A stretch of 15,734 nt of DNA from Escherichia coli (lineage in GTDB: Bacteria; Pseudomonadota; Gammaproteobacteria; Enterobacterales; Enterobacteriaceae): NCBI RefSeq assembly GCF_003334355.1, contig NZ_QOWP01000050.1, one strand, 5' to 3'. The position numbers and the translations under genes were made by a program. The notes below the pieces were generated by a model. The model saw nothing but the letters and a program-made list of their open reading frames with translations, made no database searches and was not told where the DNA came from. Positions 4,495 through 4,662 of this stretch are shown in pieces (position 1 is the stretch's first letter; every line of letters starts with the position of its first letter).

Positions 4495-4525
4495 GCAAAA
4501 AAAACGGCCTCCCGGGGGAAGCCGT
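4495..4525 (-). terminator. Rho-independent terminator downstream of fbaB
   Basis: On the minus strand: CGGCTTCC-CCCG-GGAGGCCG hairpin (8-bp stem with one G-U pair) followed by a T8 run (plus-strand A-run 4497..4504). Confidence 0.55.
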
Positions 4526-4544
4526 AACGAAGTGTGCGTGTTTT

Positions 4545-4662
4545 TATGCCGGATGCGGCGTAAACATACGTGGCAGCGCTGTGTAGGCATGATAAGACGC
4601 GTCAGCGTCGCATCAGGCATAGGTTGCCGGATGCGACGTAAACGGCTTATCCGTCCTACGGG
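4545..4662. repeat. REP/BIME cluster (repetitive extragenic palindromes)
   Basis: Repeated GCCGGATGCGGCGTAAAC / GCCGGATGCGACGTAAACGGCTTATCCGTCCTAC units and their inverted copies (CGCATCAGGC), matching the enterobacterial REP consensus; located between fbaB 3' end and the gat promoter. Confidence 0.7.

Follow-up and report, generated by a model that had tools for sequence, protein, structure and literature searches.

A probable BIME-2-type REP cluster and an intrinsic terminator between fbaB and the gat operon of Escherichia coli

Hairpins formed by REPs 3' of a coding region can shield the upstream mRNA from 3'-to-5' exonucleases, and the intergenic REPs between malE and malF are the classical mRNA stabilizers of this kind. 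REP units are also the building blocks of BIMEs, and REP/BIME sequences are the commonest short repeat of E. coli. In BIME-1 elements, z1 and y units are separated by a long L linker in which an IHF site is often found, while BIME-2 elements consist of z2 and y units with short linkers, and their copy number differs between loci and between strains (PMC3333891). The gyrase-associated class is BIME-2, whereas the IHF sites lie in the L linker of BIME-1 (PMC3333891, PMC6379681). Some of the BIME-2s are enriched in sites cleaved by gyrase, with a preference for y units, and the gyrase signal of BIME-2s persists or rises under rifampicin (PMC6379681).

A well-described arrangement of y and z2 units is REP325, whose six y–z2 pairs separate yjdM from yjdN, two genes in tandem. 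There, stabilization of the upstream mRNA and attenuation of downstream transcription were demonstrated experimentally (bioRxiv 10.64898/2026.03.23.713779). The same preprint reports that tandem gene pairs with REPs have a higher upstream/downstream expression ratio genome-wide and that REP effects are largely context dependent; REPs at transcript ends are reported there not to be generally tied to longer half-lives (bioRxiv 10.64898/2026.03.23.713779).

Here we describe a REP cluster located between fbaB and gat in a stretch of E. coli DNA of 15,734 nucleotides, the whole of which was analyzed and is called the window below. With a probability of roughly 0.85, we regard it as an ordinary BIME-2-type cluster in the fbaB 3'UTR of about 190 nt, followed by fbaB's own intrinsic terminator.

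REP units and terminator downstream of fbaB

The genes of the window follow the E. coli order gatYZABC–fbaB–yegTUV. The spacer (4388-4686, 299 nt) showed 100% identity to E. coli strain H9Ecoli, and gene coordinates were therefore obtained by mapping the RefSeq annotation of this identical region onto the window, together with the ORF list (Table 1). The calls of fbaB and gat made in an initial annotation proved right, as the H9Ecoli annotation places both fbaB and gatY on the minus strand at the positions given in the table; gatZABC follow past gatY and yegTU past fbaB. K-12 MG1655 shows the gene order of the H9Ecoli annotation, with about 91% identity in the spacer. The two transcription units, fbaB and gat, thus form a tandem on the minus strand, 305 nt apart. 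Elsewhere in the window, a TPP riboswitch (RF00059, 71.2 bits) was located at 12511-12607 on the minus strand, upstream of a 262-aa ORF (11688-12476) that is taken as thiM from the gene order.

Table 1. Positions of the REP units, the terminator and neighboring features in the window.
Feature	Position	Strand	Evidence
gatY	3527-4381	(-)	H9Ecoli annotation
gat control region and 5'UTR (context, outside the repeat)	4382..4480	(-)	promoter scan, allele comparison
predicted gat -10, CATTAT	4422-4417	(-)	promoter scan
predicted gat -35, TCGACA	4446-4441	(-)	promoter scan
intrinsic (Rho-independent) fbaB terminator; 9-bp stem, 4-nt loop, T8	4497..4525	(-)	terminator scan, fold
truncated y REP; 23/35 nt left, most of one arm gone	4547..4569	(-)	direct repeat, consensus half
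head-to-head linker, 13 nt (GTGGCAGCGCTGT)	4570..4582	.	flank comparison between units, E686-type short allele
z2-type REP, orientation opposite to y; fbaB-sense strand reads TGCCTGATGCG...GCCTAC	4583..4619	(-)	score 66/74
tail-to-tail linker z2/y, TAGGT, 5 nt	4620..4624	.	read from sequence
y-type REP, somewhat decayed; reads GTAGG...CCGGCA on the fbaB-sense strand	4625..4659	(-)	consensus match, alignment score 54/70
spacer from stop codon to first REP, 27 nt; weak REP-like remnants, not significant	4660..4686	(-)	local REP-consensus match
fbaB stop codon TGA	4689-4687	(-)	
fbaB CDS (class I fructose-bisphosphate aldolase)	4687..5739	(-)	H9Ecoli RefSeq annotation, ORF list

With the fbaB stop at 4687 and the gatY start at 4381, all REP units fall into the spacer and are thus extragenic. 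Read in the direction of fbaB, the stop codon is followed by 27 nt, a y unit, 5 nt, an inverse z2 unit, 13 nt, a truncated y unit, 21 nt and the terminator. The initial annotation had proposed at least three REP-like units in alternating orientation immediately 3' of fbaB. The alternation and the position 3' of the gene were found as proposed, but only two of the units are full-length; the third is truncated and forms no hairpin of its own (z = +0.34), and the first REP begins 27 nt past the stop codon.

The REP assignment was examined by pattern searches with strings that we take to be the y, z1, and z2 REP consensus, units of about 35-40 nt. The y consensus matched 4626-4659 (+) with three mismatches and the z2 consensus 4583-4618 (-) with one, while matches were obtained in none of 200 shuffles of the window (0/200 for both). 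In local alignments the z2 unit (4583-4619) reached 66/74 against z2, vs. 33/60 against z1 and 36/70 against y. Independent backing for the strings comes from Rfam: its covariance model of naRNA4 (RF02564), effectively the description of a y–z2 pair, matched over its entire length at 4586-4656 of the minus strand with 62.7 bits, above the gathering threshold of 59.5. The y and z2 units hence both conform to the REP consensus, and the call of a REP/BIME cluster was upheld. Reading of the sequence also revealed the foot tetranucleotide GTAG/CTAC, present as CTAC at 4656-4659 in y and as GTAG at 4583-4586 in z2, while the truncated y has ATAC at 4566-4569 in place of CTAC. The truncated unit was recognized from positions 4547-4565, whose 19 nt are identical to the y REP consensus over its 5' half; this segment outscored 1000 of 1000 shuffles and directly repeats 4625-4643 with 95% identity.

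No REP-like units were detected elsewhere in the 15.7-kb window. A fourth, degenerate REP over the fbaB stop (4661-4692) was considered and rejected, its best match being 11 nt long and equaled in score by 11-51 of 1000 shuffles; Rfam matches to snoR35, Phe_leader, suhB, ctRNA, and mir-5856 were far under their thresholds. The repeat itself is dispersed. Even though megablast needs an exact word of 28 nt, it was found at 43,433 places in 5420 genomes (median of 8 per genome), one copy sitting between wzxC and wcaK. The NC_000913.3 record has no repeat feature annotated at the K-12 equivalent of the cluster, where the fbaB–gatY spacer spans 2177205-2177511; it lists no repeat at REP325 either, and the missing annotation is therefore uninformative.

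Because of its y/z2 composition and the short linkers (5 and 13 nt) between inversely oriented units, the cluster is, judged by its sequence, of BIME-2 type and comprises about 1.5 BIME units, arranged as truncated y(+) – 13 nt – z2(-) – 5 nt – y(+). The composition of a BIME-1/RIP element was not found, the inverse unit scoring as z2 (66/74) and not as z1 (33/60), with linkers of 5 and 13 nt.

The hairpin and U8 terminator of the initial annotation were both recovered. The terminator scan gave a stem at 4525-4504 with nine pairs, six of them G-C, and a loop of 4 nt; eight T were read at 4504-4497, and the structure folds with -15.1 kcal/mol (z = -2.5). As expected of an intrinsic terminator, a G+C-rich hairpin is directly followed by a U-run on the fbaB strand, downstream of the stop codon, and its end lies 190 nt past that codon. 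In eight of eight alleles examined the stem arms were identical, while the loop varied in sequence (3-4 nt folded) and the T-run counted 7-9 residues. It is this terminator, not the REP cluster, that separates fbaB from gat. RNA polymerase leaving fbaB would transcribe the REPs and stop at the hairpin and its U8, and since transcripts would stop there, the terminator should insulate the CRP-dependent gat promoter from fbaB read-through.

On the gat side, gatY is among the known CRP targets (PMC3105977). The predicted -35 and -10 hexamers together have 9/12 matches, which by itself is not above shuffle expectation. The block 4388-4480 is almost invariant between alleles, and 4481-4500 is variable. 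From the sequence we infer a CRP-like site, CGAGA-N6-TCACA, at 4444-4459 as well as the placement of the gat transcription start. About 17 nt separate the end of the U-run from the conserved control block, and the predicted -35 hexamer is about 100 nt away from the nearest edge of the REPs. The idea that the cluster sits right against the gat control region was thus not borne out, as it is the terminator that abuts this region. An inverted repeat, ATTTCA-N8-TGAAAT, lies at 4407-4426 over the predicted gat -10, inside the invariant block, and is a candidate operator for a repressor (GatR).

Allele forms among E. coli genomes

The comparison across strains that had been suggested for the cluster revealed that the number of units varies (one, about 2.5 or three) among 5,426 complete E. 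coli genomes. The long form, defined by at least 80% of the 299-nt spacer, was present in 3,250 genomes (about 60%), and at least 80% of a 581-nt query reaching into both genes was present in 5,062. Subtracting the first number from the second gave about 1,812 genomes (about 33%) with a shorter, one-REP spacer. The truncated y unit was intact, giving a complete three-REP form, in only 32 of the 5,426 genomes (0.6%), so that about 3218 carry about 2.5 units. This polymorphism agrees with the strain-to-strain variation in BIME copy number that has been reported (PMC3333891). In an evenly spaced sample of 60 records from the 581-nt query, 36 matched in one piece with spans of 573-594 nt and 19 in two pieces with spans of 501-514 nt; one record carried an IS200C insertion, three matched in fbaB only, and one was a plasmid with a REP-only match.

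What remains in the short form is one intact y REP; the 78 nt that it lacks correspond exactly to the distance between the 19-nt direct repeats. At least two kinds of one-REP alleles exist: the LS4/SK1144 type, in which the flank of unit 3 is kept (at least 989 genomes), and the E686 type, in which the flank of unit 1 is kept (336 genomes). Compared to the intact unit of strain NDM_12_14482 (…GTAAACGCCTTTTCCGACATAC…), the truncated y of the window and of K-12 lacks 12 internal nucleotides; as NDM_12_14482 keeps the unit whole, the difference is a deletion in the window copy. The linker 4570-4582 is homologous to the sequence after the full y REP (4660-4672), and because of this homology the long form equals a one-REP form to which a BIME unit of about 90 nt (y–linker–z2–linker) was added and which then underwent a small deletion. 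Three terminator/spacer haplotypes could be distinguished by loop and flanks; all of them occur with the truncated long form and two also with the one-REP form, which means recombination or repeated rearrangement at the repeats. The element probably came and changed through the repeat's own dynamics, in which BIME units are gained, stretches between repeats are deleted, and repeats recombine.

A pattern scan for the terminator sequence in species-representative genomes returned Escherichia sp. E1V33 as the sole Escherichia match, the other 15 being unrelated hairpins. E1V33 carries the O157-like long form, and with this one Escherichia locus the scan does not show which allele is ancestral. 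Common to the O157-like, SCZE5, and Escherichia sp. E1V33 alleles is the loss of 9 nt between the y REP and the fbaB stop, which reduces this distance from 27 to 18 nt.

Several strains deviate around the cluster. In ETEC4068, which has a one-REP allele, an IS200C insertion (tnpA, IS200/IS605 family) at about 4495/4496 separates the fbaB terminator from the gat control region; its left flank matches one spacer haplotype and its right flank another. Nissle 1917, a short-allele strain, has 11 extra nucleotides (AAATAAATAGC) just before the A-run of the terminator (about 4496), at the same site as the IS200C of ETEC4068, and its fbaB is annotated as an incomplete pseudogene. The gat operon was absent beside fbaB in about 5% of the sampled genomes. 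In strain G8, its place is taken by genes of the ribitol/arabitol type, which encode a pentulose kinase (FGGY) and a transporter of the RbtT/DalT type; fbaB is followed by a different hairpin in this strain, and the divergence begins right at the fbaB stop codon.

Possible roles of the cluster

Folded as RNA of the fbaB strand, the z2 unit alone reached -14.8 kcal/mol (z = -4.2), and the y unit alone, which carries three changes in this strain, folded no better than shuffles (z = -0.37). Together, the y–z2 pair folded into a hairpin of 84 nt with -42.2 kcal/mol (z = -7.2), and the whole fbaB 3'UTR gave z = -5.5. In the mRNA, y and z2 would hence be expected to pair in this 84-nt hairpin of about -42 kcal/mol. 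Such a hairpin could serve as a second barrier to 3'-to-5' exonucleases after loss of the terminator hairpin, and it might also cause weak Rho-dependent pausing or attenuation. Both activities would favor fbaB over downstream transcription. On this analysis the cluster in the fbaB 3'UTR probably functions as an exonuclease barrier and weak attenuator. Any effect of the REPs should be modest and dispensable, because a third of the strains carry only one REP here, and a stabilizing effect should depend on context, because transcript-end REPs lack a general association with half-life. Several observations weigh against this explanation. With a good intrinsic terminator only about 20 nt further downstream, termination and protection may owe little to the REPs; the y unit, being decayed, folds no better than shuffles by itself (z = -0.37); and the frequent one-REP alleles argue against a strong requirement specific to this locus.

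It is quite possible, if short of likely, that the REPs here are nothing but a selfish or neutral repeat without measurable effect on fbaB or gat, the terminator doing all of the boundary work. The locus is polymorphic (about 60% three-unit, about 33% one-unit, 0.6% intact triple), one unit is truncated and the y unit decayed, the terminator is kept in every allele examined, and a general link between transcript-end REPs and longer half-lives is reported to be lacking (bioRxiv 10.64898/2026.03.23.713779). However, the y–z2 hairpin is still very stable (z = -7.2) and lies in a transcribed 3'UTR, and REP-containing tandem pairs show biased expression genome-wide (bioRxiv 10.64898/2026.03.23.713779).

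The cluster may also act as DNA. The initial annotation had noted that BIMEs can bind IHF or gyrase. The gyrase part of this statement fits a y/z2 BIME-2, and binding of gyrase at the cluster is plausible, whereas binding of IHF is not, because the L linker and the IHF consensus are lacking. On the DNA, the y REP would accordingly be placed among candidate gyrase cleavage sites and not among IHF sites. It is more doubtful whether the BIME-2 DNA is a transcription-independent gyrase site that removes the positive supercoils pushed by fbaB and thereby influences the gat promoter. The enrichment of cleavage sites in BIME-2s, the preference for y, and the signal that persists or rises with rifampicin (PMC6379681) are consistent with such a function, as are the tandem arrangement of fbaB and gat and the position of the cluster about 100 nt upstream of the predicted -35. 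On the other side, only some BIME-2s are cleaved and the strong examples have many units (PMC6379681), while the intact y here is single and decayed; the locus is also unmentioned in two text supplementary files of PMC6379681.

We consider it improbable that the number of REPs in the fbaB 3'UTR is a strain-specific dial on fbaB mRNA stability, residual read-through or local supercoiling at the adjacent gat promoter and so contributes to natural variation in gat expression. In the mouse gut, losing the ability to use galactitol is reported to be strongly beneficial (PMC5850726). If the dial existed, the truncated module on three haplotypes together with two one-REP alleles would represent recurrent, possibly selected rearrangement and not drift.

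Two further roles are very unlikely. REPs near a stop codon can downregulate translation (PMC12306157), and the fbaB cluster might in this way lower FbaB synthesis by stalling the terminating ribosome (REP-dependent trans-translation). This effect, however, requires a stop-to-REP distance of less than 16 nt (PMC12306157), and the first stable structure lies 27 nt past the stop here and 18 nt past it in O157-like alleles. Processing of the y–z2 pair to a naRNA4-like nucleoid-associated RNA that acts with HU in chromosome condensation would be in line with the RF02564 match above the gathering threshold on the transcribed strand, and with the report that most REPs are transcribed (PMC4550694). 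Yet the Rfam model is in effect a generic y–z2 pair, so that the match shows the type of repeat and not its function; the pair is missing at this locus in a third of strains; and REP325/naRNA4 itself had no measurable effect on nucleoid compaction, with REP-REP contacts absent (bioRxiv 10.64898/2026.03.23.713779). An IHF-binding BIME-1 (RIP/RIB) element, finally, has next to no chance of being present, since only the general statement that some BIMEs bind IHF speaks for it, while BIME-1 requires z1 and y with a long L linker carrying an IHF site, the units here are z2 and y with linkers of 5 and 13 nt, and the IHF core consensus WATCAANNNNTTR does not occur anywhere in 4382-4700.

The repeat cluster and the terminator are thus ordinary features of a well-known kind, with nothing unusual about them. 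Past annotation they matter little: they would mark where the fbaB transcript ends and how far the gat control region extends upstream, and they show that the BIME class present is the gyrase-associated and not the IHF-associated one. The allele survey provides a clean natural case of a BIME-2 unit being gained, truncated, and lost at one locus, and the set of alleles could serve as near-isogenic variants for testing the roles of REPs in a 3'UTR.

Comparison with known REP elements

Within the BIME-2 family the fbaB–gat cluster is small, with about 1.5 units, and one of its y units has the 12-nt deletion in nearly all long alleles; the remaining y has three changes that weaken its own stem. 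With BIME-1/RIP elements it shares the construction from REP units in inverse orientation. It differs from them in that these need z1 and y with a long L linker and its IHF site, and z1, the linker, and the IHF consensus are all absent here.

The cluster resembles REP325/naRNA4 (yjdM–yjdN of K-12; RF02564) in being a y–z2 pair on the transcribed strand between tandem genes, and the behavior expected of it is that of REP325, a stabilizer of the upstream mRNA and an attenuator. REP325, however, has six pairs and the fbaB–gat locus one, and the y–z2 linker here is 6 nt shorter than in the Rfam naRNA4 consensus. Unlike at REP325, a canonical intrinsic terminator comes next at fbaB–gat, and termination should be independent of the REPs. 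A similar difference separates the locus from malE–malF, where the REPs lie inside an operon without a terminator; the REPs of fbaB instead precede the transcript's own terminator.
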